DNA from: Intrasporangium sp.
GTDB taxonomy: Bacteria; Actinomycetota; Actinomycetes; Actinomycetales; Dermatophilaceae
Reading direction: 5' to 3'
Length of the DNA stretch: 64,000 nt
Assembly (NCBI RefSeq): GCF_040414665.1
Contig: NZ_JBEDUL010000010.1
Coordinates: 10,491 to 74,490, forward strand
The notes under the pieces were generated by a model, which saw only the letters and a list, made by a program, of their open reading frames with translations, did no database searches and was not told where the DNA came from. Positions 6,175-60,751 of this stretch are shown one piece after another; within the stretch, counting starts at the first letter, position 1, and the number at the start of each line of letters is the position of its first letter. The translations under genes were made by a program, and so were the position numbers.

Positions 6175-6190
6175 CCGTATGCCGCTGGGC
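6175..6190 (+). repeat. Dispersed motif copy M1 (ccgtatgccgctgggc)
   Basis: Exact core, followed by ccggtccc. It lies 70 nt upstream of the glycosyltransferase start, in the same orientation. Confidence 0.8.
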
Positions 6191-6260
6191 CCGGTCCCTC
6201 GTGCACCGACCCCAGGTCTCCGGTTGCGTCATTGACCGGACGCGGCTGACCCGCGCTGTC

Positions 6261-7442
6261 ATGCTCGGACTCGTGCGGATGCTCTTCTGCTCCACGGCTG
6301 CGACCGGCCACTTCAGCCCGCTGGTCCCGGTCGCGCGCAGTTGCGCCGAGGCGGGTCACGAGGTCCGGGTCGCCGCGCCGGCCTCGTTCGAGAGCCACGT
6401 GAGGCGGGCCGGTCTCGACCACGCTCCCTTCGAGGACATCCCGGCGGAGGTGGCCGGGCCCATCTGGGCCAGCCTGCCCACCCTGACGATGGAGGAGGCG
6501 AACCGCCGCGTCGTCCGGGAGATCTTCGCAGGGCACGCCGCCCGGCACGCGATCCCCGGGCTGCGAGCGACGATCGACGAGTGGCGCCCGGACCTCGTCG
6601 TCCGGGAGCCGGCCGAGCTCGGCTCGCTCGTCGCGGCCGAGGGAGCGAACGTCCCGCACGTCGAGGTGCTGGCCGGCCTCGCCGAGGTCACGGCCCTGCT
6701 CATGGCAGAGCTCGACGAGCCGCTCGCTGCACTCGACGCCGAAGCCGGGATGGCGGAGGGCACGCTGTACCAGGCGGCCACGACCTCGCCCTGCTGCACG
6801 AGCGTCCCCGCGAGCCTCGATGGGACGACAGGCCACACCGGACGCCCGGTCTGGCGCTATCGCGCCGACTCCGGCCGTCCCACCGGCTCGCTCCCAGAGG
6901 CATGGGGCGACCCGGACCACCCGCTGGTCTACGCCACCTTCGGCACCGTGGCCGGCGCCTTCGACACGTTCACCCACGTGTTCGGGGGAACCCTCGAGGC
7001 GCTGGCCGGTGAGCCGATCCGAGTGCTCCTGACGACCGGTCACTCCCTCGACCCGGAGTCGCTCCGACCCTGGCCGCCCAACGCGCACGTCCGTCAGTGG
7101 TGGCCGCAGGAGCAGGTCATGCCGCTCGCCTCGGCGATGGTCGGTCACGGCGGCTTCGGCACGACGATGGCGGCCCTGCAGGCCGGCGTCCCGCAGGTCA
7201 TCGTCCCGCTCTTCGCCTTCGACCAATGGGTCAACGCGAGACGCGTCCAGGGCATCGGCGCCGGACGGATGCTCGAGGGCGGCCCTGCAGCGACGTCCGA
7301 GCTCCCGGCCGCGGTAGCCGAGGTCACCCGCGACCCCGCGTTCCGGCAGCGGGCCGAGACGATCGCGGCAGACTTCACGGCCCTGCCGGACGTCGCCACG
7401 CTCGTGCCGCTGTTGACGGACCACGCGCGCTCGGCAGCGTGA
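6261..7442 (+). CDS. GT1-family UDP-glycosyltransferase (MGT/UGT-like)
   Basis: N-terminal MLFCSTAATGHFSPLVP and the C-terminal nucleotide-sugar motif GHGGFGTTMAALQAGVPQVIVPLFAFDQWVNA. The start could be 6261 or 6279. Confidence 0.8.
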   Translation: MLGLVRMLFCSTAATGHFSPLVPVARSCAEAGHEVRVAAPASFESHVRRAGLDHAPFEDIPAEVAGPIWASLPTLTMEEANRRVVREIFAGHAARHAIPGLRATIDEWRPDLVVREPAELGSLVAAEGANVPHVEVLAGLAEVTALLMAELDEPLAALDAEAGMAEGTLYQAATTSPCCTSVPASLDGTTGHTGRPVWRYRADSGRPTGSLPEAWGDPDHPLVYATFGTVAGAFDTFTHVFGGTLEALAGEPIRVLLTTGHSLDPESLRPWPPNAHVRQWWPQEQVMPLASAMVGHGGFGTTMAALQAGVPQVIVPLFAFDQWVNARRVQGIGAGRMLEGGPAATSELPAAVAEVTRDPAFRQRAETIAADFTALPDVATLVPLLTDHARSAA

Positions 7443-7453
7443 ACGGGGAACGA

Positions 7454-7469
7454 GCCCAGCGGCATACGA
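7454..7469 (-). repeat. Dispersed motif copy M2 (reverse; tcgtatgccgctgggc)
   Basis: 15 of 16 core positions match. It lies 12 nt after the glycosyltransferase stop and 144 nt before the prfB start. It is complementary to M1. Confidence 0.8.
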
Positions 7470-7613
7470 CAGCCTTTCTCTCGGCACGTGCGGGACGGAT
7501 GACGGGACGAGGCGCCGCGGTCCCTGCGTGGGCACCCGGCTCGACCGGGTTTGCTCCCGTCATCGCTCCCGGGCGGCAGGCCCCCTCGGTCCACTGCCGT
7601 AGGCTGTTGCATC

Positions 7614-8729
7614 GTGGCTGTTGACTTCACCCAAGAGATCAAGGAACTGCGCGCGACGATGGACTCGGTGCGCGGCGTCACCGACCTCGACGCCCTCGGC
7701 GCACGGATCGCCGAGCTGGAGCAGCAGGCAGCCGCCCCCAACCTGTGGGACGACCCCGACACGGCGCAGCAGGTCACGTCGGCGCTGTCCCGCGCCAACT
7801 CCGAGCGCGACCGCGTGCTCGCCATGGACGGCCGCATCGAGGACCTCGAGACGCTCGTCGAGATGGCCACGGAGGAGTCCGACCAGGACACCATGGACGA
7901 GGCCGAGCGCGAGCTGGCCGCCCTGAGGAAGGACGTCGGCGAGCTCGAGGTGCGTACCCTCCTGTCGGGGGAGTACGACGAGCGCGAGGCCGTCGTGACG
8001 ATCCGCTCCGGGGCCGGCGGCGTGGATGCGGCCGACTTCGCCGAGATGCTCATGCGGATGTACCTGCGCTGGGCCGAGCGCCACGGGTACCCGACCAAGG
8101 TGATGGACACGAGCTACGCCGAGGAGGCCGGCCTCAAGTCGGCCACCTTCGAGGTCAACGCCCCGTTCGCCTACGGACACCTGGCCGTTGAGGGCGGCAC
8201 CCACCGCCTCGTGCGGATCAGCCCGTTCGACAACCAGGGTCGGCGCCAGACGAGCTTCGCAGCGGTCGAGGTCATCCCGCTCATCGAGAGCACCGACCAC
8301 ATCGAGATCCCTGAGAATGAGATCAAGGTCGACGTCTTCCGGTCGTCGGGGCCGGGTGGCCAGAGCGTCAACACGACCGACTCCGCCGTCCGGATGACGC
8401 ACCTGCCGACCGGCATCGTCGTGTCGATGCAGAACGAGAAGTCCCAGATCCAGAACCGCGCCGCAGCCCTCCGGGTCCTCCAGTCCCGCCTGCTCCTGCA
8501 GCGCAAGGCGGAGGAGGCCGCGGCGAAGAAGGAGCTCGCCGGCGACGTCAAGGCGAGCTGGGGCGACCAGATGCGGTCCTACGTCCTCAACCCCTACCAG
8601 ATGGTCAAGGACCTGCGGACCGAGTACGAGACCGGCAATCCGGCCGCGGTCTTCGACGGCGACATCGACGGGTTCCTCGAGGCCGGCATCCGCTGGCAGA
8701 TCGGGCAGAAGAAGGCCGCCACCGTCTGA
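7614..8729 (+). CDS. prfB: Peptide chain release factor 2
   Basis: SPF tripeptide (RISPFD) and GGQ motif ([10 protein letters not shown]). GTG 7614 gives about 371 aa. The frame is continuous, with no programmed frameshift. Confidence 0.92.
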
Positions 8730-8888
8730 GCCGTCTGGGCCGTCTGGGCCGCAAGGAAGTTCCTCGTCGGCGGCGACAACGAAACCGCCGTCTCTGTGCG
8801 TCTTGGGATCACACGTCCTGCGGCGCCGAAGCAGCAGCGGACACGTCGCAGGGTGTGCATCGCCATCCACACCTGAGGGGGAACTCCC

Positions 8889-9395
8889 ATGCACGTGCTC
8901 ACTCGCTCCATCACCGCGCTCACCACGCTGACCGCCGCCGCGTCGCTCGCCGTCGCCGCCGCGCCCGCCTCCGCGGCAGCCTCCGCGCGAACGCCGGCAA
9001 TCGCACCGACGGTGTCGGTCAACGCCAACGGCGTCACCTGCACCAACGTGGTGCAGATCGGCACGAAGAAGGTCGTCGCCGACCGCGGCATGAACGCCTT
9101 CACCGTCCGCCAGTTCAAGGGGTACTGCCGGGACGCCAAGGGGTCCGCCTGGATGAACTTCGCCTCGGTCTACGTCTGGCAGCAGTACCACGTGCGCGGC
9201 TTCGCCTACCGGGCGTACGCCGGAATCGTGGTCCGAGGTGACTTCGAGCCGCGCGGCTTCAAAGCCGGTGCCAACCGCCAGCGGCTGACCTACTCCACGC
9301 CGGTCCGCACCATCAACGACTGCACCCGGGGCTGGGGCAAGCTGTTTCGGCTGGGCGACGAGTCGCGCCAAGGCATGACGTCCGAGCGGTGCTGA
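8889..9395 (+). CDS. Secreted hypothetical protein (168 aa)
   Basis: High GC3. It has a signal-peptide-like N-terminus (TALTTLTAAASLAVAAAPASAAAS). I recognise no family. Confidence 0.6.
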   Translation: MHVLTRSITALTTLTAAASLAVAAAPASAAASARTPAIAPTVSVNANGVTCTNVVQIGTKKVVADRGMNAFTVRQFKGYCRDAKGSAWMNFASVYVWQQYHVRGFAYRAYAGIVVRGDFEPRGFKAGANRQRLTYSTPVRTINDCTRGWGKLFRLGDESRQGMTSERC

Positions 9396-9411
9396 CCCGG
9401 CGCGCCACGCC

Positions 9412-9436
9412 CGAATCGTCGGTAACACCGGATTCG
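9412..9436 (+). terminator. Hairpin downstream of the secreted-protein gene
   Basis: CGAATCgtCGGtaacaCCGGATTCG forms 6+3 bp with a small bulge, 17 nt after the stop codon. There is no clear U-tract. Confidence 0.35.
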
Positions 9437-9476
9437 CCGCTTCGGCCCGTAGCCTCGAAGACGGCGACAGAACATG

Positions 9477-9492
9477 CCGTATGCCGCTGAGC
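9477..9492 (+). repeat. Dispersed motif copy M3 (ccgtatgccgctgagc)
   Basis: Exact core preceded by ATG and followed by gcggtcccagccc. It lies 76 nt upstream of the ftsE start. Confidence 0.8.
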
Positions 9493-9568
9493 GCGGTCCC
9501 AGCCCACCGCTGGCTCCGCGCCCGGCGCCAGTGCCGCCATTGCCCAGACGAGCGAGCCAGGGGAGCCG

Positions 9569-10447
9569 ATGATCCTCTTCGAGCAGGTGACGAAGACCTA
9601 TCCGCGGACGCAGCGGCCGGCCCTCGACGACGTGTCGCTCGAGATCCCCCGCGGCGAGTTCGCTTTCGTCGTCGGAGCCTCAGGCTCGGGCAAGTCGACG
9701 CTGCTCCAGCTCGTCATGAAGGAGCAGGATGCGACCTCGGGTCGCATTCTCGTTGCCGGCCGCGACCTGGCCCGGCTGCCGGACCGGAAGGTGCCGGCCC
9801 TGCGCCGCGAGATCGGCTTCGTCTTCCAGGACTTCCGCCTGCTGCCCAACAAGACGGTCCACCAGAACGTCGCCTATGCCCTTCAGGTCCTTGGTGCGTC
9901 ACGGTCGCGGATCCGCCAGGTCGTGCCGGAGACGCTCGAGCTCGTCGGCCTCGCGGAGATGGGGAAGCGCCTGCCCCACCAGCTCTCCGGCGGCGAGCAG
10001 CAGCGGGTCGCCATCGCCCGCGCCTTCGTCAACCGCCCGCCGATCCTGCTCGCCGACGAGCCCACTGGCAACCTCGACCCGGACACGAGCCTCGAGATCG
10101 TCAAGCTGCTCGAGCGGATCAACCGCACCGGCACGACGGTCGTCATGGCGACCCACGACACGGCCACGGTCAACGCGATGCGCAAGCGCGTCATCCGTCT
10201 CGACGAGGGCGCCCTCGTGGCCGACGTCGAGACGGGCGACTACACGACCGGGTCGATCCCGCGGGTCGAGCTCGGGCCGGCGCATCCGGACGACCTGCCA
10301 GACCCGCTCCAGGAGGAGGCGCTCCACGCCGTCGAGGCCTACGAGGAGGAGGGCGAGCTGCCGCCCATCGGCCGTGACGCCGACGAGCCGCGCGAGCGCT
10401 TCTCGGTCTTCCGCCGCCACCAGCCAGAGCGCTCGAGCGCCCGCTGA
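9569..10447 (+). CDS. ftsE: Cell-division ABC ATPase FtsE (with ~60-aa acidic/Pro-rich C-terminal extension)
   Basis: Walker A GASGSGKST, signature LSGGEQQR and Walker B ILLADEPTGNLD. It is followed by ftsX. Confidence 0.9.
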   Translation: MILFEQVTKTYPRTQRPALDDVSLEIPRGEFAFVVGASGSGKSTLLQLVMKEQDATSGRILVAGRDLARLPDRKVPALRREIGFVFQDFRLLPNKTVHQNVAYALQVLGASRSRIRQVVPETLELVGLAEMGKRLPHQLSGGEQQRVAIARAFVNRPPILLADEPTGNLDPDTSLEIVKLLERINRTGTTVVMATHDTATVNAMRKRVIRLDEGALVADVETGDYTTGSIPRVELGPAHPDDLPDPLQEEALHAVEAYEEEGELPPIGRDADEPRERFSVFRRHQPERSSAR

Positions 10448-10460
10448 CGGGGCAGGGGCG

Positions 10461-12954: not shown

Positions 12955-13041
12955 GGACAGGCCCGGGAACCGGCTCTGAGAACTCGCTCTGGGCCGCGAC
13001 CTCCGTCGGGGTAGCGTGGGGTCGCCGCCGGACGGAAGCCA

Positions 13042-13057
13042 GCCCAGCGGCATACGA
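13042..13057 (-). repeat. Dispersed motif copy M4 (reverse; tcgtatgccgctgggc)
   Basis: 15 of 16 core positions match. It lies 87 nt after the M23 stop and 37 nt before the smpB start. Confidence 0.8.
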
Positions 13058-13577: not shown

Positions 13578-15680
13578 TCAGTACCACTTTCCGAAGGACT
13601 GGTACTCCGAGAACCCGGCGTGCACGTCGAGGGTCCCCGTCTCCCACTTGCCCCACCGGAGCCAGCCGTAGGAGTACTGGAACCGACCCATGCCATTGGC
13701 CCACCCATTCGTGTCGGCGGGGTGGCACATGTTGGCGCAGTAGTCCGCGCCCCACGCCCCGAAGGCCCGATCCGGGTCTGCATGGCCGATGGGGGAGTAC
13801 TGGCTGCCGGGCAGACCGAAGTCCGTCGTTCCCAGGACGTCGTGCAGCGCCTTGTGGTCCGCGTGGAGGTACGGGGAGCCGGCTCCGGTGTCATTGAAGT
13901 AGCCACCGGCCACGATGTCCCCCTCCGACTGCGTCGGCAGGAGGGTGCGGAGCTGGCGGGCGTTCTCCAGGGCCCAGATGACCTTGTCCCTGGTGAGCTG
14001 GCCGTCCCCGAGGTCGAAGACGAAGCGGGCGCTGCGCGGCCCGATGGCAACGTCGACGTAGTCAGCCGGCTGGCTCGACCCATCCTCGACGAGGTGGGTC
14101 GGGGTCGGCAGGGTTCGCCCGTTCCAGGTGATCGACTGCCCCTGATGGCGCTCCACCTGACCCATGGGGTCGTCGGGACCAGCCAGGCGGTTGAGGAACT
14201 CGTGCCAGCTCGCGACCCGGTGGTCGCGGCATCGGTCCGAGAAGCGCAGGCCGGTCGGCTGTGGCTGAGGCAGGAACTCCTGGTTCATCCACGTGGTCGA
14301 GACCGGCCGGCCAGTGCAGTTGGAGGTCGCCTCGCCCCGGGTCAACAGGATGAACACGTCATAGCGCCCCGGGGTCGCCGGCAGGAGCGAGCCGGCGGAC
14401 ATGTTGTCGTCCGGGTGGACCTCCGGCACGTAGCGCAACACCGGCGCGTCAGCGGTGCCGACGTACCACGAGAGCCGGCGCGCCTCATCCGTCGTGGCTC
14501 GGGGGGACCTCGCCTGACCGGCATCGAGCAGGACGGGTCCACCCTTGAAGCCCGCGAGTGCACCAGCGGACAGGGCGTCCGCGAAGCCCAGGCCCGTCGC
14601 GAGGACGACCGTCGACGCCGTTCCGGTGAACGCGCTCCGCGACAGAGCCGCGGCGGTCTCGTAGCGGTTGGCGCCGCTGACCCGACGAACAGTGCCCCCC
14701 GTCGCGGACGCGATGGCCGCCCGGACCCCGTCGCTGATCACGTCAGCGCCGCCGACGATGACCGTCGTCTTCGGACGGGTGCGGGCGAGCTCGCGTGCGG
14801 TGGCCGGGGGCAGGCTGGTCGATGTGGCCAGCAGGAGGGAGCCCTTCTGGTGTGCAGCGACCGGCCCAGCGGCCAGGGCATCCGGGAAGTTGGCGCCGGT
14901 GGCGACGAAGGCGATCGTCGGGATCGTGGTGTCTGCGCGAGCCAGCGCTGCGGCCGTCTCGAAGCGGTTTGCCCCGGCGACCCTCCTGATCGTCGCCTTG
15001 GGCACCGCTTGTGCAATCGCCGACTGCACCGATGACGACACCACCCCGGTGCCGCCGACCACGATGACCTCAGTTGGCGCGAGACGGAGGAGCTCCTGGC
15101 GGGTCACGGACGGCAGGCCCGTCCCGCGGGTCAGCAGGAGCGGTGCGCTGTGGTGTGCGGCCGCCCGGGACGCGGCGAGACCATCGGGGAAGTTCTCCCC
15201 CGTCGCCACGTACACCCGGGCGCTTCCCGACGGATGGCCCGCGGCCGAGATCTGGGCGGCGGTCGAGTAACGGTCTGGCCCGGCGAGCCGGCTGGGCTTC
15301 CGGTCGGTGACCGATGCCAGCGTGGTGAGGGCGCCGGGCGTGACCACCGTCGTACCGCCAGCGGCGTGGAGTGTCCCGACACTGCGGTTGACGGAGGGAG
15401 TCGCCTGCACTCCAGCGACGAGCGACCGGTCCGCGGTACTCGACGCCACCGGTTTGTCGAGAACGGTGCTGCGCGAGCGCACCCGGGTGTCGGTGGCCTC
15501 CTCGGGGGGAGGCAGCTCGCGCCTCGCCACATCGGGTACCGACGGGGACCCCGGAGCCGGCGAGGGCGTTGGCGTGGGGACCGGCTGGGCAGATCCCTCG
15601 GCTGTCCCCACAGCGATGAGCGCAAGTGCTGCGATCAGTGCGGCGCCCAGTGCGCGCGCAGGCCGATGTGAGCGATTCAC
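13578..15680 (-). CDS. Secreted cell-wall-binding (CWB2-repeat) protein with uncharacterised C-terminal domain
   Basis: Signal peptide after GTG 15680. There are three CWB2-like repeats (G[AP][DN]R[YF][ES]TAA ... ATGxNFPDxLAA), then a ~320-aa Trp/Gly/His-rich domain I cannot assign. Confidence 0.75.
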   Translation of the reverse strand: MNRSHRPARALGAALIAALALIAVGTAEGSAQPVPTPTPSPAPGSPSVPDVARRELPPPEEATDTRVRSRSTVLDKPVASSTADRSLVAGVQATPSVNRSVGTLHAAGGTTVVTPGALTTLASVTDRKPSRLAGPDRYSTAAQISAAGHPSGSARVYVATGENFPDGLAASRAAAHHSAPLLLTRGTGLPSVTRQELLRLAPTEVIVVGGTGVVSSSVQSAIAQAVPKATIRRVAGANRFETAAALARADTTIPTIAFVATGANFPDALAAGPVAAHQKGSLLLATSTSLPPATARELARTRPKTTVIVGGADVISDGVRAAIASATGGTVRRVSGANRYETAAALSRSAFTGTASTVVLATGLGFADALSAGALAGFKGGPVLLDAGQARSPRATTDEARRLSWYVGTADAPVLRYVPEVHPDDNMSAGSLLPATPGRYDVFILLTRGEATSNCTGRPVSTTWMNQEFLPQPQPTGLRFSDRCRDHRVASWHEFLNRLAGPDDPMGQVERHQGQSITWNGRTLPTPTHLVEDGSSQPADYVDVAIGPRSARFVFDLGDGQLTRDKVIWALENARQLRTLLPTQSEGDIVAGGYFNDTGAGSPYLHADHKALHDVLGTTDFGLPGSQYSPIGHADPDRAFGAWGADYCANMCHPADTNGWANGMGRFQYSYGWLRWGKWETGTLDVHAGFSEYQSFGKWY

Positions 15681-15819
15681 TTCTTCCCCGATTCCCCTCA
15701 ATGCCAAACACGTCGAGCGGACGAACCGCCGAACGTCGACCACCCTCGGTCTAGGATAGGGACAAGCCAGCCGACTGCGGCGGCACTATCGCGGAACTGT
15801 GATCTTGGGGACATAAAAG

Positions 15820-17733: not shown

Positions 17734-17736
17734 GGG

Positions 17737-19581: not shown

Positions 19582-19706
19582 GACGTGCCTCCTCGTCGGG
19601 TGCTCACCGATTCTTGGGCGGGCCGTCGTGACGCAGCATCATCCTGACCGGGTGAACCTGCCCGACATGCCCCGCATCGCACCAGACGCCGCCCTACAGT
19701 CGTCCC

Positions 19707-20366: not shown

Positions 20367-20395
20367 GGGTGTCGACCGCCGGGTAGGACAGGGGT

Positions 20396-22035: not shown

Positions 22036-22109
22036 CGACAATCGAGCCGGGGCGCGATGGTCGGCGCCACCCGGAGCGATGTCCCACCGACAACCGAGCC
22101 GGGGCGCGA
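22036..22109. repeat. Two 22-nt direct repeats (CGACAAYCGAGCCGGGGCGCGA) 52 nt apart
   Basis: The copies are at 22036-22057 and 22088-22109, in the convergent ligD/pyc intergenic region. Confidence 0.6.
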
Positions 22110-25518: not shown

Positions 25519-25589
25519 GTGACCTCCAGGCGTCGACGGCGTGCGTCTGGCAGCCTAGTGGCGCGGCGTGCGCGTGACCCTGGCACCGA

Positions 25590-25605
25590 GCCCAGCGGCA
25601 TACGG
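25590..25605 (-). repeat. Dispersed motif copy M5 (reverse; ccgtatgccgctgggc)
   Basis: Exact core. It lies 71 nt upstream of the pyc start in the pyc orientation, and 111 nt upstream of the tmRNA 5' end. Confidence 0.8.
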
Positions 25606-25716: not shown

Positions 25717-26083
25717 GGGGGTGATCGGTTTCGACGGTGGTCGACACACCAGGGGAAGCGGGTCGAGGATGCAGGGTTATCTCGTTAACGCTCCTTGCAA
25801 ACCAATAGGTGCCAACTCAAAGCGCACCGACTTCGCCCTCGCCGCCTGAGCGAGCCCCGAAGTCCGTCAGCCTGAGCTAGTTTCCGACTCAGTGCCTGGC
25901 GTCAGCTAGGAAACTTGCTGCGTGGTCATGTTGGGGGGCCGCGCGGGACTCTCACTCAACTGGGCCTGTCAGGGAACGTGTGCGCGCGAGCCCTGGGGCC
26001 GAGAAAAGCCATAGCGCACTGCACCCGGAGAAGTCCTGGTCTCTCGTCATCGGACGCGGGTTCAATTCCCGCCACCTCCACCA
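25717..26083 (+). ncRNA. ssrA: tmRNA (SsrA)
   Basis: The 5' end GGGGTGATCGGTTTCGACGG pairs with the 3' end, which has T-arm GGTTCAATTCCCGCC and terminal ACCTCCACCA. The tag ORF at 25811-25846 encodes ANSKRTDFALAA, followed by TGA. Confidence 0.95.
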
Positions 26084-26109: not shown

Positions 26110-26125
26110 CCGTATGCCGCTGGGC
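26110..26125 (+). repeat. Dispersed motif copy M6 (ccgtatgccgctgggc)
   Basis: Exact core preceded by GTG and followed by cgggtcccagccc. It lies 26 nt after the tmRNA 3' end and is a perfect complement of M5. Confidence 0.8.
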
Positions 26126-26167
26126 CGGGTCCCAGCCCGGACGTGCCTTCCCGCTTAGGGTGGGACC

Positions 26168-27439: not shown

Positions 27440-27455
27440 CCGTATGCCGCTCAGC
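27440..27455 (+). repeat. Dispersed motif copy M7 (ccgtatgccgctcagc)
   Basis: The core has the G-to-C variant. It overlaps the stop codon of the SIMPL gene and lies 40 nt from the thioredoxin start, in the opposite orientation to both genes. Confidence 0.75.
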
Positions 27456-28074
27456 GCAGTTCCCAGGTCACCGTGACGCTCGCGGTGAGCTCGAGATCAC
27501 CGCCCTCCACCGGCATGCCAGCCGACGAGTCCATGGCCGCCATGGCCATCATGCGGCGGCCCGGCTGGATCGGGGCCGCCCCGGACTCGGCCACTCCGAG
27601 GACGGTGCCGACCTCGGAACCGGACAGGGCGGCATACTGCTCGGCCTTGGCGCGCGCCTCGGCGAAGGCGGCGTCCCGGGCGCGGGCCAGCCCGTCGGAG
27701 CGGTCGTCGACGTCGAGGCGGACCTGGTCGACGAGCAGGGCATTGCCGACCTCCGAAGCGGCCGCCTCGAGGATCTCGCCGACCTGGTCGAGCCGGCGCA
27801 CGGTGACGCCGAGCCGCTGCTGGGCCGTGAAGCCCACCGGGGTGCCGGTGTTGTCGTACCGCTGGCTGACATTGGCGTCGAGGGTCCGGATGTCCCGGTC
27901 GGGCACGCCTTGGTCGCGGACCACCCGGCCGACCGCTGTGATCCCCTTCGAGGCGCCGGTGAGGGCGGCGGCCACGTCCTGCGCGTCGTGGCCGATGCGC
28001 AGGTCGAGGCGGACGACGTCGGGGCTGACGGCCGCGCGGCCGGTCCCGATGACGGTGACGGTGCGCTTGGGCAT
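27451..28074 (-). CDS. SIMPL/DUF541 domain protein
   Basis: N-terminal TVTVIGTGRAAVSPDVVRLDLRI and overall length are typical of SIMPL-family proteins. Confidence 0.75.
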   Translation of the reverse strand: MPKRTVTVIGTGRAAVSPDVVRLDLRIGHDAQDVAAALTGASKGITAVGRVVRDQGVPDRDIRTLDANVSQRYDNTGTPVGFTAQQRLGVTVRRLDQVGEILEAAASEVGNALLVDQVRLDVDDRSDGLARARDAAFAEARAKAEQYAALSGSEVGTVLGVAESGAAPIQPGRRMMAMAAMDSSAGMPVEGGDLELTASVTVTWELR

Positions 28075-31311: not shown

Positions 31312-32160
31312 ATGCCGTATGCCGCTGAGCTCGCTCCCGAGGGCTCGCCAGCTCCCGCTCGGGTGGCCGTCATCGACAGCGGCATCGGCCTGCTCGGCTA
31401 CGCGGGCGCCCTCCGGAACCTCCGGCCCGACCTGGAGCTGGTCCTGGCGCTCGACCCCGACCACATGCCATACGGTCCCCGGCCGCACGAGGAGGTCAGG
31501 GAGCTCGTCCTGGCCCTGGCGAGGTCCGCCGCGGCGTACGAGCCCACCGCCATCGTCGTCGCCTGCAACACCGCATCCGTCCACGGCCTGGCGGCACTCC
31601 GCGAGGAGTTCGAGCCCGATGTCCACATCGTCGGGACCGTCCCGGCGATCCGCCCGGCGGCCGCGACCGGCGGACCGGTGGCGATCTGGTCCACCGCCGC
31701 GACATCGTCGAGCGACTACCTGCGAGGCCTCGTCGATGCCTTCGCGTCGGACATCGAGACGCACTCGATCGCTGCGCTCGGCCTCGCCGAGGCCATCGAG
31801 CAGGCGGACCCGGAGGCGATCGACCGGAGCATTGCCGCTGCGGTTGCCGCCTCGCCCCGGAACGTGAGCGCCCTCGTCCTCGGCTGCACGCACTACGGAC
31901 TCGTCGGCGACCGCATCGCGCAAGCGTGGGCCCGGCGGGCGGGGGCCGGCGTGACGATCTTCGACTCGCCGGTCGCCGTCGCACGGCAGACGCTCCGCCG
32001 CATCGGGCTCGAGCCGGATGAGCGCGCCCTCCCGAGCCCGGCGGCGCCGACCGTGCTGCTCAGCGGCCGGCCGGGTCAGCTCCCCGAGCGGCTGGCGGCA
32101 TATGCCCCCGCGGCCGAGCTGCTCGGCCGATCGGACCCGCGGCCTACACTTTCGTCATGA
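31312..32160 (+). CDS. murI: Glutamate racemase
   Basis: VIDSGIGLLGY, and catalytic Cys motifs ACNTAS and GCTHY. Only the 3' part of the 416-aa track ORF is used. An alternative start exists at GTG 31363. Confidence 0.9.
   Translation: MPYAAELAPEGSPAPARVAVIDSGIGLLGYAGALRNLRPDLELVLALDPDHMPYGPRPHEEVRELVLALARSAAAYEPTAIVVACNTASVHGLAALREEFEPDVHIVGTVPAIRPAAATGGPVAIWSTAATSSSDYLRGLVDAFASDIETHSIAALGLAEAIEQADPEAIDRSIAAAVAASPRNVSALVLGCTHYGLVGDRIAQAWARRAGAGVTIFDSPVAVARQTLRRIGLEPDERALPSPAAPTVLLSGRPGQLPERLAAYAPAAELLGRSDPRPTLSS
31315..31330 (+). repeat. Dispersed motif copy M8 (ccgtatgccgctgagc)
   Basis: Exact core immediately after the ATG annotated as the murI start (MPYAAEL). Confidence 0.8.
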
Positions 32161-32592: not shown

Positions 32593-34362
32593 ATGAGTTC
32601 AGGGGCCGCCTTTCACCTGTCACCCGCCTTCCCGGATCGCGCCGCCTGGGGCACCGCGAGCAAGCTGCGTGCCTGGCAGCAGGAGGCCCTCGACTCGTAC
32701 CTTCGGGACGACCCGCGCGACTTCCTCGCCGTGGCCACGCCCGGTGCCGGCAAGACCACCTACGCGCTCCGGGTCGCCACCGAGCTGCTCTCCCGCGGCC
32801 TCGTCCACCGGATCACCGTCGTGGCGCCGACCGAGCACCTCAAGACGCAGTGGGCTGATGCGGCGGCCCGGGTCGGGATCAGCCTCGACCCGAGGTTCAG
32901 CAACTCGGTCGGCCGACACTCCGAGGACTACCACGGCGTCGCGGTGACGTATGCGCAGGTCGCCTCGCGTCCCTCGCTCCACCGCGAGCTGACGCTGACC
33001 CGCCCCACCCTGGTGATCCTCGACGAGATCCACCACGGCGGCGACAGCAAGAGCTGGGGGGACGGCATCCGGGAGGCGTTCGACTCGGCGACGCGCCGAC
33101 TCTCGTTGACCGGCACGCCGTTCCGTTCGGACACGTCACCGATCCCCTTCGTGCGCTACGAGCTCGATGCGGATGGGATCCTGACGTCGTCGAGCGACTA
33201 CGCGTACGGCTATGCGGAGGCGCTGCGCGACGGCGTCGTGCGACCGGTCCTCTTCCTCGCCTACGGCGGCAACATGCGCTGGCGCACCAAGGCGGGTGAC
33301 GAGATCTCGGCGAGCCTCGGCACCCCGATGACGAAGGACCAGATCGCCCAGGCCTGGCGCACCGCCCTCGACCCCAAGGGGGAGTGGATCGGCTCGGTCC
33401 TTGCCGCCGCCGACAAGCGGCTCACCGAGGTCAGGCGCGGGGTGCCTGACGCGGGCGGCCTCGTCATCGCGTCCAACCAGACGCAGGCGAGGGCGTATGC
33501 CGCTCAGCTCCGAGCGCTGACCGGCGAACCTGTCGCGGTGGTGCTCTCCGATGACGCGGGGGCCTCCCAGCGCATCGAGGAGTTCGCCGCCGACACGTCC
33601 CGCTGGATGGTCGCCGTCCGCATGGTGTCCGAGGGTGTCGACGTGCCGCGCCTCTGCGTCGGCGTGTACGCCACCTCGACCTCCACCCCGCTCTTCTTCG
33701 CCCAGGCAGTGGGTCGCTTCGTCCGGGCCCGGAGGCGTGGCGAGACGGCGTCCGTGTTCCTGCCCTCCGTGCCCGTCGTCCTGGACCATGCTGCGCGGCT
33801 GGAGGAGCAGCGCGACCATGCCCTCGACCGCAAGCCAGCGGCAGAGGGCGACGTCGCTGCGATGTGGGCGGAGGAGCAGGGTCTGCTCGACGAGGCCCTG
33901 CGCGAGGAGAAGGCGAACGCCAGCCTGCTGGACGAGGGCACCTTCGAGGCGCTCGAGTCCGAGGCCCACTTCGACCACGTGCTCTTCGACAAGCAGCAGT
34001 GGGGCATGCACGCCCAGGTCGGCTCCGCGGAGGAAGAGGAGTACCTCGGCCTGCCCGGGCTGCTCGAGCCCGACCAGGTCGCCGCGCTGCTCCACGAGCG
34101 GCAGCGCAAGCAGGTGAAGAAGGCACCGAAGGCGCCGAGCGCACCCCTCGCGCAGCACCGGGCGCTCGCCGCCCAGCGCAAGGAGCTCAACAAGCTCGTC
34201 TCTGCCTACGCGCGGCAGAAGGGCCATCCGCACGCCACCGTCCACCTGGACCTGCGGCGGGCATGTGGTGGGCCCGACCTCGCCGCAGCCTCGTCGGAGC
34301 AGGTCGCGGAGCGGATCGAGCGGATCCGCAACTGGCTGGTCGGCCGGCGCCAACGTCAGTAG
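32593..34362 (+). CDS. SF2 DEAD/DEAH-box helicase (Res-subunit-like)
   Basis: Walker A ATPGAGKT, DEIHH box, and a helicase C-terminal domain. The start is uncertain (32518, 32557 or 32593). Confidence 0.8.
   Translation: MSSGAAFHLSPAFPDRAAWGTASKLRAWQQEALDSYLRDDPRDFLAVATPGAGKTTYALRVATELLSRGLVHRITVVAPTEHLKTQWADAAARVGISLDPRFSNSVGRHSEDYHGVAVTYAQVASRPSLHRELTLTRPTLVILDEIHHGGDSKSWGDGIREAFDSATRRLSLTGTPFRSDTSPIPFVRYELDADGILTSSSDYAYGYAEALRDGVVRPVLFLAYGGNMRWRTKAGDEISASLGTPMTKDQIAQAWRTALDPKGEWIGSVLAAADKRLTEVRRGVPDAGGLVIASNQTQARAYAAQLRALTGEPVAVVLSDDAGASQRIEEFAADTSRWMVAVRMVSEGVDVPRLCVGVYATSTSTPLFFAQAVGRFVRARRRGETASVFLPSVPVVLDHAARLEEQRDHALDRKPAAEGDVAAMWAEEQGLLDEALREEKANASLLDEGTFEALESEAHFDHVLFDKQQWGMHAQVGSAEEEEYLGLPGLLEPDQVAALLHERQRKQVKKAPKAPSAPLAQHRALAAQRKELNKLVSAYARQKGHPHATVHLDLRRACGGPDLAAASSEQVAERIERIRNWLVGRRQRQ
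33493..33508 (+). repeat. Dispersed motif copy M9 (gcgtatgccgctcagc), inside the helicase CDS
   Basis: 15 of 16 core positions match. It is read as AYAAQL and uses the rare codons TAT and GCT. Confidence 0.65.
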
Positions 34363-36427: not shown

Positions 36428-38302
<1,875 letters not shown>

Positions 38303-42268: not shown

Positions 42269-43134
42269 GCCGTGGTCCTTTCAGGGAGGAGGCCGAGCGC
42301 CTTCAGCTCGGTCAGGGGGTCGAGGACGCCGCAACAGCCGAAGCCGGTGAACGACGCGCGCAGCCGGTCGATGTCCCCGGCGTCGAAGGCGGTCAGGCGC
42401 CCGACGAGGTCCTCGACGTCCGTCACCTCGAGAGTGCGCACGAGGTGTGCAGTGCCCGCCCGCTCGAGCGCGTCATGGGTGGCCACCAGGACGTTGAGCA
42501 AGCCATGCATGGGCTCCCCACCGCCGTCACCGCGCACGACATGGTGCAGGCCGCCGGTCAGCTTGAAGGCGAGGCCCCGCGCCACTGCTGCGTGCAGAAA
42601 GCCTGCCAGTGTCGCCTCGTCGGGCCACGGCCAGGTCGGCGTCTGGCCGGTGCGGAACTTGGCCCGGACGCGCGCGCCCTGGCGGGCCGCGTCGGCGATG
42701 TCGTCCAGCTCCTGCGCCTGGCCCGGCCCGCGTCCGACCTCGACCACGACAGGTGGCCCGAGCTCGAGCACCTCCCGCCAGTCTGCCGACCAGCCGACCT
42801 CGACGCTCGAGACGTGCGCGGCGGACTCGTCGTGGAGCAGGCGGACCGCATCGGCCAGCGGCTCGAGCGGTCCACCCGGGCGCACGACGAGGCCGACCTG
42901 GATCGGGGAGCGCGCCGCACGAGGGTCCCGAGCTGCGAGGGCGGCCACCTCAGCCGCCGCGGTGGCGGGCACGAGCAGCGGTCCGAGCTGAGCGGCATAC
43001 GGCCCGGCTTGGAGGTCGAGGTGCTCGCGCACGGCCACGTCCGTCGGAGCCAGCCCCGGCGGGAAGACGGCTGCATCGTCGACGAGGTGCTCGAAGATCC
43101 GCGCATGGTGGGGGAAGCCGGTCGACCTTGACAT
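42265..43134 (-). CDS. Hypothetical protein (289 aa) translationally coupled to fahA
   Basis: High GC3. Its stop overlaps the fahA start (ATGA). I recognise no family. Notable segments are AKFRTGQ and FKLTGGLHH. Confidence 0.7.
   Translation of the reverse strand: MSRSTGFPHHARIFEHLVDDAAVFPPGLAPTDVAVREHLDLQAGPYAAQLGPLLVPATAAAEVAALAARDPRAARSPIQVGLVVRPGGPLEPLADAVRLLHDESAAHVSSVEVGWSADWREVLELGPPVVVEVGRGPGQAQELDDIADAARQGARVRAKFRTGQTPTWPWPDEATLAGFLHAAVARGLAFKLTGGLHHVVRGDGGGEPMHGLLNVLVATHDALERAGTAHLVRTLEVTDVEDLVGRLTAFDAGDIDRLRASFTGFGCCGVLDPLTELKALGLLPERTTA
42987..43002 (-). repeat. Dispersed motif copy M11 (reverse; ccgtatgccgctcagc), inside the CDS
   Basis: Core with the G-to-C variant. It is in sense orientation to the minus-strand gene and is read as PYAAQL. 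Confidence 0.7.
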
Positions 43135-57690: not shown

Positions 57691-57697
57691 CGCGATG

Positions 57698-57713
57698 TCG
57701 TATGCTGCTGAGC
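57698..57713 (+). repeat. Dispersed motif copy M12 (tcgtatgctgctgagc)
   Basis: 14 of 16 core positions match, and it is preceded by ATG. It lies 7 nt after the MBL stop and 88 nt before the rph start. Confidence 0.65.
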
Positions 57714-57801
57714 TCGGTCTTACGTCTTCGTGACGTCGCGCGCAGGCCGGGTCAGCGCGCGGCGCGCGGCCTACCGTTGAGGGATGGCTAGCCTTCAGGG
57801 C

Positions 57802-58554
57802 ATGACTGCCACACGACATGACGGACGTGCCCCCGACGAGACCCGCCCGGTCCGGATCACCCGGGGCTGGCTCGACCACGCCGAGGGGAGCGTCCTCGTC
57901 GAGTTCGGGCGCACTCGGGTCCTCTGCGCCGCCTCGTTCACCGAGGGAGTGCCCCGCTGGCTCAAGGGAAAGGGCACCGGCTGGGTGACGGCCGAGTACG
58001 CCATGCTGCCGCGATCGACGAACACCCGATCCGACCGCGAGTCCGTCAAGGGCCGGATCGGCGGCCGCACGCACGAGATCTCCCGGCTCATCGGACGCAG
58101 CCTGCGCGCCGTCATCGACACGAAAGCCTTGGGGGAGAACACGATCATCCTCGACTGCGACGTCCTGCAGGCCGACGGCGGGACCCGGACGGCCGCCATC
58201 ACCGGCGCCTACGTGGCACTGGCCGACGCCGTTGCGGATGCCCGGGCACGGGGCCTGATCGGCAAGAACGCGAAGCCCCTGACGGGGTCGGTCGCGGCGG
58301 TGTCGGTCGGCATCGTCGGCGGGCAGGCGGTCCTCGACCTCGACTACGAGGAGGACGTGACCGCTGGGACGGACATGAACGTCGTCATGACCGGTGACGG
58401 CCGCTACATCGAGGTGCAGGGCACCGCCGAGGGCCAGCCGTTCGAGCGAGCCCTTCTCGACGAGCTGCTCGAGCTGGCCGCCAGGGGATGTGCAGACCTC
58501 ACCACCGCACAGCGCGCGGCTCTCGACTCGGGTGGCGAGGGGGCGGCCTCATGA
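57802..58554 (+). CDS. rph: Ribonuclease PH
   Basis: [19 protein letters not shown]..., [14 protein letters not shown] and [22 protein letters not shown] 57802 is preferred over 57784. Confidence 0.93.
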
Positions 58555-59183
58555 CGAAGGTCGTCCTCGCCACGCGCAACCACCACAAGGTCGAGGAGCT
58601 GCGCGAGATCCTCGCGGACGTCTGCGGCGAGCTCGACCTCGACATCGTCGGTCTCGACGAGTTCCCTGATGCACCCGACGTCGTCGAGGACGGTGTCACG
58701 TTCGACGAGAACGCGGTGCTCAAGGCGACATCGGCCGCGGAGACGACGGGGCTACCGGCGCTCGCGGATGACTCAGGGCTTGCCGTCGACGTGCTCGGAG
58801 GCGCGCCTGGCATCTTCAGCGCCCGCTGGTCCGGGAGCGCGGGGCCGGGAGCCGACCGGGCGAATCTCGAGCTGCTGCTCGCACAGCTCGGCGACGTGCG
58901 CGAGGAGCATCGGGGCGCGGCGTTCGTCTGTGCGGCCGCACTCGTCCTGCCGGATGGACGGTCCGCGGTCGAGACGGGCCGCTTCCCCGGCCGGGTCGCT
59001 CACGAGCCCCGGGGGACCGGCGGCTTCGGCTACGACCCCATCTTCGTCCCCGAGGAGCAGCCGGCTCCGGGCGAGTCGCGCACGCTCGCGGAGTACTCAG
59101 CGCAGGAGAAGAACGGTGTCTCACATCGGTTCCGCGCCTTCCGGGCGCTGGCGCCGCAGCTGAGGGAGCTGCTCCGCCCATGA
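58551..59183 (+). CDS. rdgB: Non-canonical purine NTP pyrophosphatase (XTP/dITP diphosphatase)
   Basis: [18 protein letters not shown] ... FGYDPIFVP ... [11 protein letters not shown]. The ATGA start overlaps the rph stop. Confidence 0.92.
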
Positions 59184-60751
59184 GCTCGGCCAGCCCGACG
59201 GCACGCAACCCGGTCGCGAGCAGACCACCTGCGACGCAGCCGGTCCCGGCCTGGGCTGCTGCTGCGCACGGTCTTGTCGCCGGGCTGCTCACCGTTGGGC
59301 TCAGCACCCTCATCGCGGCGATCCTCGGGTGGCTCGGCGGGACCAGCGGCCAAGCCGCCCCGATCGCAGCGGTCAGCAGCGCGTTCATCGACCGCACCCC
59401 ACCGTGGCTGAAGGACCTGGCGATTTCGGCCTTCGGCACGAACGACAAGCGGGCCCTCCTGGTCGGGGTCGTCATCGTGCTCGCCGTCCTCTGCGCCGTC
59501 ATCGGCATCCTCGCGCGTACGAGGCTGACGGCGGCGCTCATCGCCTTCGGCGTGCTCGGGGGGGTCGGCGTCGCCGCGGTGCTCTCGCGGCCCGAAGCCT
59601 CGCTCGCCGACGCCGTTCCAACGGTGCTCGGTACCGCCGCGGGGCTGTGGTTCCTCAGCCGCGGCACCCGCTCGGCCGCGGCGACGGGCGCCGACAACCC
59701 GGCGCGACGCCTCCTGCTCGGGGCAGCGGTAGGCGGCTCAGCGGCATACGTCGGCTGGTTCCTCGGCGGCGACTCGGCGGCGGCCACGGCCTCCCGGGAG
59801 GCGATCGCCCGCGAGCCCGCCCGGGCAACGAAGATCCCGGTGCCGGCGGGCGCCGACCTCAAGGTCCCGGGAGCGACCCCGTTCGTCGTGCCCAACGACG
59901 ACTTCTACCGGATCGACACCGCGATCATCGTGCCGCGGCTGAACGCCGACGAGTGGAGTCTCCGGGTCACGGGCATGGTGGAGCGGGAGGTCGCGCTCGA
60001 CTGGAACGCCTTGCAGGACAAGCCGATGCACGAGGCGTTCGTGACGCTGACCTGCGTCTCCAACGAGGTCGGTGGGGACCTCGTCGGCAACGCCGTGTGG
60101 ACCGGCTGGCCGGTGCGCGACCTGCTCGCACAGGCCGGCCCGCTGGCCGGGGCCGACATGGTGCTCCAGACGAGCGCCGACGGGTGGACGTGCGGGACGC
60201 CCCTGTCCGCCATGACAGACGGCCGCAACGCCCTGCTCGCCGTGCGCATGAACGGTGAGCCGCTCCCGTTCGAGCACGGCTTCCCGGTGCGGCTCGTCGT
60301 GCCGGGCCTCTACGGCTTTGTCTCCGCGTGCAAGTGGGTGACCGAGCTGAAGGTGACGACCTTCGCGAAGGACGTGGGCTACTGGACTCCGCGAGGATGG
60401 TCGGCCGAGGGGCCGATCAAGACGTCGTCACGGATCGACGTCCCCCGATCCGGGGCCACGGTGCCGGCGGGCCGGGTCGCGGTCGCCGGTGTGGCATGGG
60501 CGCAGCACCGGGGGATAGCCGAGGTGGAGGTTCAGGTCGACGACGGTCCGTGGACGCCGGCACGGTTGGCGGCCGACGCGAGCATCGACTCATGGCGCCA
60601 GTGGGTCCTCGACTGGGACGCGACGCCGGGCAGTCACACGCTTCGCGTGCGCGCGAGGGACCTGACCGGCGCGCTGCAGTCCGCCGTCGCACGACCCCCG
60701 GCGCCCAACGGGGCGGAGGGCCTGCACACGGTGACCGTGCGCGTCGACTGA
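59180..60751 (+). CDS. Membrane-anchored molybdopterin-dependent oxidoreductase (sulfite-oxidase/MsrP-like fold)
   Basis: An N-terminal multi-TM region is followed by a Moco domain with LTCVSNEVGG (Mo-ligand Cys) and a C-terminal Ig-like domain. The ATGA start overlaps the rdgB stop. Confidence 0.8.
   Translation: MSSASPTARNPVASRPPATQPVPAWAAAAHGLVAGLLTVGLSTLIAAILGWLGGTSGQAAPIAAVSSAFIDRTPPWLKDLAISAFGTNDKRALLVGVVIVLAVLCAVIGILARTRLTAALIAFGVLGGVGVAAVLSRPEASLADAVPTVLGTAAGLWFLSRGTRSAAATGADNPARRLLLGAAVGGSAAYVGWFLGGDSAAATASREAIAREPARATKIPVPAGADLKVPGATPFVVPNDDFYRIDTAIIVPRLNADEWSLRVTGMVEREVALDWNALQDKPMHEAFVTLTCVSNEVGGDLVGNAVWTGWPVRDLLAQAGPLAGADMVLQTSADGWTCGTPLSAMTDGRNALLAVRMNGEPLPFEHGFPVRLVVPGLYGFVSACKWVTELKVTTFAKDVGYWTPRGWSAEGPIKTSSRIDVPRSGATVPAGRVAVAGVAWAQHRGIAEVEVQVDDGPWTPARLAADASIDSWRQWVLDWDATPGSHTLRVRARDLTGALQSAVARPPAPNGAEGLHTVTVRVD
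59736..59751 (-). repeat. Dispersed motif copy M13 (reverse; acgtatgccgctgagc), inside the Moco CDS
   Basis: 15 of 16 core positions match. It is antisense to the gene, where it is read as GSAAYV. Confidence 0.6.

Follow-up and report, generated by a model that had tools for sequence, protein, structure and literature searches.

A high-copy, non-palindromic word in Intrasporangium and its relatives, and its possible role as an uptake sequence

Why should one short sequence recur over and over in a 64-kb stretch of Intrasporangium DNA, between genes as well as inside them, and what keeps it there? The stretch in question (64,000 nt, called ‘the window’ throughout) holds 13 copies of a non-palindromic motif, which we find to be the Intrasporangium ‘dialect’ of a word, with core GTATGCCG, that is kept at very high copy number by a clade of Micrococcales. 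The explanation that we judge best, if tentatively and with a little less than even confidence, is a molecular drive resembling that of the DNA uptake sequences (DUS) and uptake signal sequences (USS) of transformable bacteria, in which copies would accumulate through biased uptake or transfer of DNA.

The motif, its anatomy and its conservation

Searching both strands of the window for CCGTATGCCGCTGRGC, with up to two mismatches allowed, returns 13 copies: six exact, five with a single mismatch and two (at 33493 and 57698) with two (Table 1). All 13 positions and strands listed in an earlier note on this DNA are recovered exactly, and none is added. Shuffled versions of the window (70% G+C) that preserve its dinucleotides hold 0.23 copies on average and never more than two, bearing out the view of that note that such a recurrence cannot be chance. 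It had also pointed to two copy-free intervals, at 13.1–25.5 kb and 43.0–57.7 kb; both gaps are real, but by our own estimate, made with an exponential spacing model, two such gaps among 13 copies fit random placement.

The anatomy of the motif was defined by an alignment of 161 distinct copies, taken from the window and from 79 related 8-kb blocks that were picked because they contain the 15-mer. Its invariant part is this 15-mer, CGTATGCCGCT(G/C)(A/G)GC; often preceded by (A)(T/G)G(C), with an A-rich stretch at positions −13 to −4, and followed on its 3′ side by the consensus T(C/G)G(C/G)TCCC, so that the extended 3′ flank previously noticed in several window copies is seen to be shared across the alignment. 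Working outwards from here, nothing is conserved past position +23. The Intrasporangium form of the word is about 24 nt long, consisting of the A-rich stretch and (ATG)C-CGTATGCCGCTG(A/G)GC-T(C/G)G(C/G)TCCC. A 7-nt direct repeat that had been described within it (ATGCCGT-ATGCCGC) is only partly general, with A present at 39%, T at 40%, G at 70% and C at 50% for the respective upstream bases. We also considered, and rejected, a small open reading frame (ORF) beginning at the upstream ATG (MPYAAELAP...), as there is no consistent ORF and no conservation beyond +23.

In 127 kb of Intrasporangium DNA picked by gene homology rather than by motif, we find 29 perfect 15-mers, two with one mismatch and none with two; the perfect copies have an expectation of approximately zero, with matches at three and four mismatches occurring at chance level. 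Copy density is ~0.2–0.26 per kb, which by extrapolation gives an estimated 800–1,000 copies per 4.0-Mb Intrasporangium genome.

Orthologous regions were available from I. calvum (L118), from an Intrasporangium metagenome-assembled genome (MAG; L119) and from Intrasporangium sp. DVR (L124); the FtsX protein encoded by the window is 96% identical to that of an Intrasporangium MAG and 93% to that of I. calvum, its molybdopterin oxidoreductase is 100% identical to a protein of an Intrasporangium sp., and exact matches to its SmpB come from short metagenome contigs only. The window shares intergenic copies with these regions in the gaps that separate the glycosyltransferase gene from prfB and the M23 peptidase gene from smpB, ahead of ftsE, pyc and rph, and past the end of the tmRNA gene. 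Across such orthologous intergenic sites the 15-mer is 97% identical, as against 73% for the upstream flank, 75% for the downstream flank and 80% for the 8-nt extension. The copies appear on this comparison to be old and conserved, not recently mobile, and the notion of a lineage-specific selfish mini-repeat, raised in the earlier note, is contradicted both by the conserved orthologous copies and by the origin of at least one coding copy through substitution (see below).

A clade-wide core, its placement and its reading frame

We surveyed the core in ten genomes, at loci picked irrespective of the motif: the window, I. calvum, MAG L119, Intrasporangium sp. DVR, I. oryzae (L125), three further MAGs (L120–L122), Terrabacter (L126) and Lapillicoccus jejuensis (L123). 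In nine of the ten, GTATGCCG ranks first or second among over-represented 8-mers, with 6–15 copies per 21–64-kb locus vs 0.2–0.9 expected; the suggestion of a ‘genome-wide signature sequence’ is supported, and so extends to the clade. The exception is Lapillicoccus jejuensis, with no copy of GTATGCCG in 21 kb. Taken together, the sister lineages (I. oryzae, Terrabacter and the three MAGs) have 57 copies vs 2.8 expected, an enrichment of approximately 20-fold, at 49 independent positions.

The form of the word differs between lineages. Within Intrasporangium sensu stricto, almost all copies of GTATGCCG belong to the long form, and 26 of 33 are intergenic; in the sister lineages the long form is rare, the core occurs at ~0.5 per kb, and 42 of the 57 copies are coding. 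We distinguish the dialects GGTATGCCGC in L122, GTATGCCGT in L121 and GTATGCCG(Y) in Terrabacter and I. oryzae, alongside the long form of Intrasporangium proper.

An exact scan for the 15-mer CGTATGCCGCTGRGC in one genome per species found at least 113 loci; none of those listed overlaps the window. The matches listed belong mostly to Intrasporangium species and MAGs, with others in Humibacillus, Terrabacter, Flexivirga and Actinomycetota MAGs, and single chance ones in unrelated phyla; in Humibacillus and Flexivirga the word is dense in the few blocks sampled, these having been chosen for holding the motif. Among viral contigs, 106 have a single match each (chance level) and none has several. 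With no viral enrichment, and no plasmid match to a 60-nt synthetic dyad, an origin from phage or plasmid was rejected.

Within genes, the word is accompanied by a marked choice of codon. Where the context nnG TAY GCC Gnn occurs in the sister lineages, tyrosine is encoded by TAT 25 times and by TAC three times, against a share for TAT of 6.6% among Tyr codons elsewhere (Fisher p = 9e-24); sites of the form nCG GCN TAC use GCA 10 times and GCC twice. A general avoidance of GTAC was rejected as the cause of TAT, since before other codons G-TAC is found 98 times and G-TAT four. Sense copies of the short core, six of six, share one frame in L121, L125 and L126, whereas frames are less uniform in L120 (four of six) and L122 (three of five).

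Classifying 164 copies by genomic context gives 115 intergenic, 25 coding sense and 24 coding antisense, with 18 of the 25 sense copies in the single frame xCG TAT GCC GCT GAG, and ~35 copies placed deep within long ORFs of high score, over 120 nt away from both ends. For the window, our in-house gene calls put 10 copies between genes and three inside them (33493, 42987, 59736), in agreement with the ten previously described as intergenic or at a gene start; the distances of 70, 76 and 71 nt to the start codons of the glycosyltransferase gene, ftsE and pyc were likewise reproduced. Most copies lie 10–80 nt from a stop codon, and there is no fixed distance or orientation to start codons across the 115 intergenic copies. 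Between co-directional genes, 30 intergenic copies are sense and 35 antisense; a further 27 are flanked by convergent genes and 16 by divergent ones. Together with the ~30% of copies found in genes, these numbers speak against a regulator or sigma-associated site, one of the roles that the earlier note had proposed.

Orientation is similarly even at the level of the locus, the plus:minus counts in loci chosen without reference to the motif being 7:7, 4:3, 4:2, 5:6, 6:6, 6:4, 2:4, 7:8 and 5:4; the window itself is balanced (7:7) although 44 of its 57 genes, as called from codon statistics, share one strand. This balance, which holds in the window and in every locus, argues against a polar word of the type represented by Chi or by the FtsK-orienting polar sequences (KOPS).

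How the coding copies came about can be followed at several sites. The segment containing the copy at 59736 (GSAAYV) aligns without indels across 25 orthologues, among them proteins of Intrasporangium, Terrabacter and Terracoccus; the window and Intrasporangium sp. DVR (78% protein identity) both read GGC TCA GCG GCA TAC GT, with two rare A-ending codons, TCA and GCA, of which I. oryzae and Terrabacter have just the part GCG GCA TAC G. Because the orthologues are free of indels and the rare codons have been kept, we conclude that this copy arose by substitution and not by insertion. At 42987 the copy (PYAAQL, its Tyr codon being the rare TAT) is retained in all four genomes compared: the window, L124 (2359), I. 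oryzae (L125 1835) and Terrabacter (L126 1295). A peptide of Pyc, EDMYAAANRILG, is encoded with GTATGCCG in L120–L122 and with GTACGCCG in the window, and at a site in a DUF2207 gene two synonymous changes, the second being CCC to CCG, jointly create the word. For the intergenic copies, comparison of orthologous sites does not separate substitution from insertion.

Approximately two thirds of copies are single. Among relatives, 24% of copies are paired convergently, with the partner no further than 130 nt away (spacing usually 2–4 nt, up to 95 nt), and 9% divergently at 8–14 nt, or in a few cases ~55 nt. The convergent pairs are perfect hairpins, with symmetry often extending into unique sequence on both sides, and have folding z-scores of −3.8 to −10.6; in a scan for terminators composed of a stem plus T-tail, one such pair passes and another does not. 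There are no convergent pairs within the window. The earlier description of the motif as ‘not an inverted repeat’ is correct for every copy in the window and fails for the family, given the paired copies of its relatives; in the same way, ‘not REP or terminator-like’ is accurate within the window and not elsewhere, convergent pairs forming terminator-like hairpins.

Single copies, by comparison, are unstructured. The mean folding energy of 50 single intergenic copies is −33.2 kcal/mol vs −32.8 kcal/mol for shuffles, with no preferred pairing partner at any position; three of four window copies tested fold at z-scores of 0 to +0.6, with the value of −2.85 for the ftsE copy owing to an adjacent, independent hairpin. 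A downstream hairpin common to single copies, or a fixed distance to the ribosome-binding site, was rejected: no partner is consistent, and the energies equal those of shuffles. A scan of the window at Rfam gathering scores finds only the tmRNA (25717–26083) and a tRNA-Leu. An ‘RNA-level element’, also suggested previously, is not supported: the motif matches no Rfam family, its single copies are unstructured and it shows no strand preference.

A second word, GTAGCCGA, is over-represented in the window (14 sites vs 1.8 expected; for example at 5493, 12857, 20185 and 34928). We rejected it as a comparable motif: it is a codon-usage artefact, with 12 of its 13 coding copies antisense and the coding strand reading TC GGC TAC in preferred codons.

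Uptake sequence or other signal

How might such a word be maintained? Under the uptake reading, a sequence-specific step in gene transfer would favour fragments that carry it, the most plausible route being natural transformation via a Tad/Flp pilus and ComEA/ComEC, as in Micrococcus luteus. Homologous recombination of the favoured fragments would then constitute a molecular drive, making new copies by point substitution wherever these are tolerated (intergenic DNA, synonymous Tyr-Ala sites) and restoring mutated ones, with convergent pairs perhaps doubling as terminator-like hairpins. We favour this reading because the word occurs in both orientations, shows reading-frame bias and origin by point substitution, forms dyad pairs and has lineage dialects; each of the hallmarks described for uptake sequences is present at the sequence level. 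The idea was called ‘pure speculation’ when first put forward; it now fits the sequence-level evidence best, and is rated on that evidence, biased uptake or transfer as the force and a protein as its reader being what we infer from it. The window also includes a Tad/Flp locus of the tadA-tadB-tadC-(flp)-tadE-tadG type (Table 1), with a gene order matching that of M. luteus, which belongs to the same order and where tad-type clusters are required for natural transformation (PMC4322843).

Known uptake sequences are non-palindromic, present in similar numbers in each orientation, under-represented in genes (34.5–65% in ORFs) with a strong frame bias, and frequently form dyad pairs that are predicted terminators (PMC2817400). 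They show a steep drop from perfect to one-off copies and grow by point mutation (PMC1939737); those of Neisseriaceae are divided into lineage dialects (PMC3630211). The word described here is like the DUS of Neisseriaceae (10–12 nt, eight dialects, with the minor pilin ComP as receptor) in being over-represented, non-palindromic and found in both orientations, with a minority of copies in ORFs and these biased in frame, with terminator-like dyads, with dialects built on a shared core, and with orthologous positions kept. It is unlike them in belonging to a high-GC Gram-positive host whose pilus is of the Tad/Flp kind rather than type IV with ComP; in Intrasporangium the word is also about twice as long (15–24 nt) and some four to five times sparser, and the likeness is one of sequence alone. 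There is a partial resemblance between ATGCCGCTGA and ATGCCGTCTGAA, which is probably coincidence.

With the USS of Pasteurellaceae (a 9-nt core and AT-rich flanks, ~29–32 bp in total) the word shares a conserved core with weaker flanks, here A-rich on the 5′ side and T(C/G)G(C/G)TCCC on the 3′ side, many copies within genes in preferred frames, and an origin by point mutation and not insertion (PMC1939737). The short-core lineages, with mostly coding copies, are closer to USS in this respect, and Intrasporangium, with mostly intergenic copies, to DUS.

Other high-copy words provide partial parallels. The cyanobacterial octamer HIP1 (GCGATCGC) is, like the word, over-represented many-fold across a clade, both in and between genes, and a preprint proposes that it aids DNA uptake (bioRxiv 10.64898/2026.06.24.733823). 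HIP1 is however a palindrome and a methyltransferase target, whereas our word is asymmetric and has grown to 15–24 nt in one genus. The octamers Chi, KOPS and SRS (SpoIIIE recognition sequences) are also short, asymmetric and over-represented genome-wide, including in genes; these strongly favour one replication strand and are enriched only a few-fold, in contrast to a word that is balanced per locus, enriched ~20-fold and, in its long form, found 29 times vs approximately zero expected. A full-text search for the motif sequence gave unrelated matches only, apparently primers or oligonucleotides, and our search for literature on uptake sequences in Actinobacteria or on repeats in Intrasporangium found nothing relevant.

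Saying this, several points weigh against uptake. Lapillicoccus also has a Tad locus yet lacks the word, so the locus does not explain the word's distribution. One-off copies are fewer relative to perfect ones (2 to 29) than in Haemophilus influenzae or Neisseria, a ratio for which site-wise purifying selection would account equally well; at 0.2–0.26 copies per kb the word is also sparser than in the classical systems. The summed density of coding GTACGCC and GTATGCC changes little from lineage to lineage (0.73, 0.50 and 0.72 per kb), from which it follows that most coding copies derive from one abundant near-match, and a context-specific C-to-T change, through mutation or repair bias, could yield most of them. 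The base for our counts is small, DNA sampled without regard to the motif amounting to ~250 kb in all, and gene calls come from a simple in-house finder based on codon statistics; our expectations derive from low-order Markov models, which underestimate codon-favoured words such as the GTAGCCGA control. That a true uptake or transfer signal is in use in a clade of Actinobacteria with Tad pili (Intrasporangium, Terrabacter, Humibacillus and their relatives), with the core GTATGCCG sharpened to 24 nt in one genus, we would call possible but not probable on the sequences to hand.

The alternative that survives best, unlikely as we consider it to be, is that copies are binding sites for an abundant chromosomal protein (nucleoid-associated or boundary-forming) and are kept by purifying selection with no involvement of gene transfer. 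Conservation of the 15-mer at orthologous sites (97%) amid diverging flanks is what this would predict, as is the near all-or-none character of copies (29 perfect vs two one-off), their placement at gene boundaries, mostly 10–80 nt from a stop codon, and a 24-nt footprint with a heptad direct repeat that suits recognition by a protein. Such a protein would leave unexplained why compatible Tyr-Ala sites in the sister lineages are close to saturation (TAT 25 vs TAC 3), and why converted sites occur at 49 mostly lineage-specific positions in unrelated genes; no known protein is a candidate, and the sites of global regulators are degenerate rather than identical over 15 nt.

Less probable again, in our estimation, is a functionless by-product of context-dependent mutation or repair, by deamination of methyl-C in GTACGCCG or a process like very-short-patch repair acting towards GTATGCCG. 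That GTACGCC and GTATGCC add up to about the same coding density whether or not a lineage has the word is as expected for such a bias, identical peptides are encoded with GTACGCCG in some lineages and GTATGCCG in others, and in HIP1 there is already an example of an extremely abundant octamer linked to methyltransferases (bioRxiv 10.64898/2026.06.24.733823). A one-base conversion, however, can neither make nor keep a 15–24-nt form with 29 perfect copies where approximately none is expected, and does not explain conservation over 15 positions at orthologous intergenic sites, the second synonymous change at the DUF2207 site or the dyad pairs. It is also at odds with the ~15 intergenic 8-mers of the sister lineages, for which our own composition-based estimate is at most ~2.5, and the word is non-palindromic, unlike HIP1 and most methyltransferase sites.

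A variant that keeps the drive and changes its reader would have a conjugative dsDNA translocase of the FtsK/TraB type, as found in mycelial actinomycetes, preferentially transferring segments that bear the word. All of the evidence for a transfer drive applies equally here, and a clade-wide core of exactly 8 bp is suggestive, KOPS, SRS and TRS (TraB recognition sequences) being 8-bp words and Intrasporangium being mycelial. We nonetheless regard it as a long shot: no TraB-like gene is seen in the sampled DNA; the word has no strand skew, whereas KOPS and SRS are strongly skewed; known TraB sites occur together in one short clt locus, in contrast to a word dispersed at 0.2–0.5 per kb; and the 24-nt Intrasporangium form is far longer than any known translocase word.

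Selfish intergenic repeats, whether of the kind known as REP/BIME (repetitive extragenic palindromes and the mosaic elements that they build) or resembling miniature inverted-repeat transposable elements (MITEs), could be spread by a RAYT (REP-associated tyrosine transposase) or another transposase. As in the REP/BIME-RAYT systems of enterobacteria and pseudomonads, there are hundreds of short, mostly intergenic repeats near gene ends, in both orientations, with some inverted pairs that form strong hairpins and with orthologous sites kept within a genus; a GTAT head followed by GCCGCTGAGC even resembles the REP layout of GTAG plus palindrome. Yet REP units are imperfect palindromes and by definition extragenic, whereas single copies of the word (about two thirds) are non-palindromic and fold no better than shuffles, 21–30% of copies lie in real genes, and the coding copy checked is a substitution without an indel. 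The dyads lack target-site duplications, their symmetry runs into unique flanks, and their interiors differ in sequence and in length (3–95 nt), so that a MITE, for want of such duplications and of a conserved interior, was rejected. The same orthologous sites are occupied in three species; sister lineages have the 8-mer only, mostly in genes; and the results for viral contigs and plasmids given above point the same way. A tblastn search with E. coli RayT of 813 kb from ~20 genomes gave a best E of 0.06, albeit with low power on account of the distant query and partial genomes. The selfish-repeat explanation is largely refuted already, and we consider it very improbable.

Finally, a role as promoter, as binding site for a sigma factor or regulator, or as part of the RNA of a 5′ untranslated region can be practically dismissed. 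Four sense copies of the window do lie 70–76 nt before a start codon by the starts used in the earlier note (three by our calls, with rph at 88 nt), and the ftsE and smpB leaders each have their copy 3′ of a conserved −10-like box. Against this, the direction of copies is random relative to that of transcription (30 sense vs 35 antisense), 27 copies are between convergent genes and 49 in genes, the position of the prfB-proximal copy relative to the promoter differs between species, and there is neither an Rfam family nor a conserved structure.

To our knowledge, sequence-specific DNA uptake has been shown in only two Gram-negative families, Neisseriaceae and Pasteurellaceae; where uptake sequences come from and what reads them are long-standing questions. 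Were the uptake reading correct, the word would be the first uptake sequence outside these families and the first in a Gram-positive bacterium: a third and independent case, in Actinobacteria with a different type of pilus. It would imply frequent transformation favouring the same species in actinomycetes of soil and activated sludge, with a sequence-specific Tad/ComEA receptor, and the natural dialects of 8–24 nt, alongside the word-free relative Lapillicoccus, would form a comparative system in which to search for that receptor and test molecular drive. Natural transformation would also be indicated for groups of environmental importance that have few genetic tools, relatives of Tetrasphaera and Phosphoribacter among them, and adding the word to donor DNA could render these bacteria transformable. 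Even without uptake, a word that governs the choice between synonymous codons at almost all compatible sites would expose a genome-wide force acting at the level of DNA, and conserved 15-mers in 5′ leaders and past stop codons should not by default be annotated as regulatory sites.

Individual copies and neighbouring sequence

Table 1. Motif copies, short-core copies and the Tad locus of the window, with orthologous or related sites in other genomes (genome handles as given in the text).
Feature	Coordinates	Strand	Context	Orthologous or related sites
Tad/Flp locus	3..4371		T2SSE ATPase, two T2SSF, small flp-like ORF (~2780–3004), TadE, 148-aa ORF, TadG-like ORF	
Long form, exact 16-mer plus flank CCGGTCCC	6175..6198	+	Intergenic, 70 nt 5′ of glycosyltransferase gene (6261–7442)	L119 5862
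Long form	7446..7469	-	11 nt past glycosyltransferase stop, antisense to both neighbours, upstream of prfB	L118 7755, L119 7143 (15-mer identical, flanks diverged)
Long form, ftsE leader	9477..9500	+	~20 nt 3′ of conserved −10-like TAGCCT, 76 nt before start codon	L118 9010, L119 9031; degenerate divergent pair in L120; none in L121 or Lapillicoccus L123
Long form, smpB leader	13034..13057	-	Antisense, downstream of conserved −10-like TAGCGT	L118 12591, L119 12657; absent in L120, L121, L122 and L123
Long form	25582..25605	-	71 nt upstream of pyc (22144–25518, minus), divergent region with tmRNA gene	L118 19368
Long form	26110..26133	+	27 nt past 3′ end of tmRNA gene (25717–26083)	L118 19925
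Long form, CTCAGC variant	27440..27463	+	Overlaps stop codon of SIMPL-family gene (27451–28074, minus); antisense to both neighbours	
Short core GTATGCCG only	27630..27637	-	Sense, in SIMPL-family gene	Similar upstream flank (gcagagca / gcgcagca) before GTATGCCG at L122 20479 and L120 20372; flank likeness alone, orthology not implied
Long form, full consensus flank TCGCTCCC	31315..31338	+	12 nt past DUF179 gene stop, ~32 nt before glutamate racemase start	
Coding copy, two mismatches to 16-mer	33493..33508	+	Sense, xCG TAT GCC GCT CAG CTC (AYAAQL), ResIII/DEAD helicase gene (32557–34362)	
Long form, non-consensus flank	36987..37002	-	Divergent intergenic, 16 nt upstream of Lrp/AsnC regulator gene (36428–36970, minus)	
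Short core GTATGCCG only	37615..37622	+	Sense, in glyoxalase-family gene (37079–38302)	
Coding copy	42987..43002	-	Sense, CCG TAT GCC GCT CAG CTC (PYAAQL), gene of 289-aa protein without Pfam match (42265–43134, minus)	See text
Decaying long form TCGTATGCTGCTGAGC, two mismatches	57698..57721	+	8 nt past stop of metallo-beta-lactamase-fold gene, upstream of rph	Exact in L124 8518; reads CCGTATGCCGCCGGGC in L125 8151
Coding copy, antisense	59736..59751	-	Coding strand GGC TCA GCG GCA TAC GTC (GSAAYV), molybdopterin oxidoreductase gene (59180–60751)	See text

Close to three of the intergenic copies we see −10-like boxes: CTGCCGTAGGCTGTTGCATC for prfB (7594–7613), GGCCCGTAGCCTCG for ftsE (9444–9457) and GGGGTAGCGTGGGG for smpB (13008–13021). 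These boxes are mostly kept across Intrasporangium, the three MAGs and even Lapillicoccus, the exceptions being L121, which has no prfB box, and Lapillicoccus, where the smpB box reads TAACCT; they are likely to be the real promoters of the three genes. Of the two copies that follow such a box, that of ftsE is in sense orientation and that of smpB in antisense. The prfB-proximal copy precedes the promoter, by a spacing that differs between species and is 130 nt in one of them.

In L120 a public minus-strand gene call at 8692–9909 overlaps a clear plus-strand ftsE; the sequence after the motif pair there translates as MILFENVTKTYPR..., and the public call is probably wrong.

Elsewhere in the window, the intergenic region between ligD and pyc (22043–22109) contains a direct repeat, CGAGCCGGGGCGCGA, in two copies 52 nt apart. 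The corresponding region has a motif copy instead in L119 and in L118, the latter also having a repeat of its own, GAACTGCTCTTTCGATGGGTC. Three segments of the window (4430–7442, 8889–9395 and 13578–22015) hold genes missing from the orthologous stretch of I. calvum: respectively an MFS transporter and the glycosyltransferase; a 168-aa hypothetical protein; and a block comprising a CWB2 protein, GH15, an ion channel and LigD. The window segment at 13.5–22 kb, absent from I. calvum, is without a motif copy.

Other repeated sequences were seen in the relatives. The top 8-mer of Lapillicoccus is GACCCGGA/TCCGGGTC (12 vs 1.9 expected), which equals the TraB recognition sequence of the Streptomyces plasmid pSVH1 but may simply reflect codon usage. 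In the Intrasporangium-like MAG L122, just past the Tad locus (3939–4107), there is a tandem array of nine units with a period of 21 nt, each containing AGTGCACT. A second repeat family, TCGAGTGTGCAGTTCGCGCCCGTCAAGTCC and inverted variants of it, adjoins several motif copies in the MAG CAVWGJ01 (L074, L092 and L110) and is tandemly repeated in L092.

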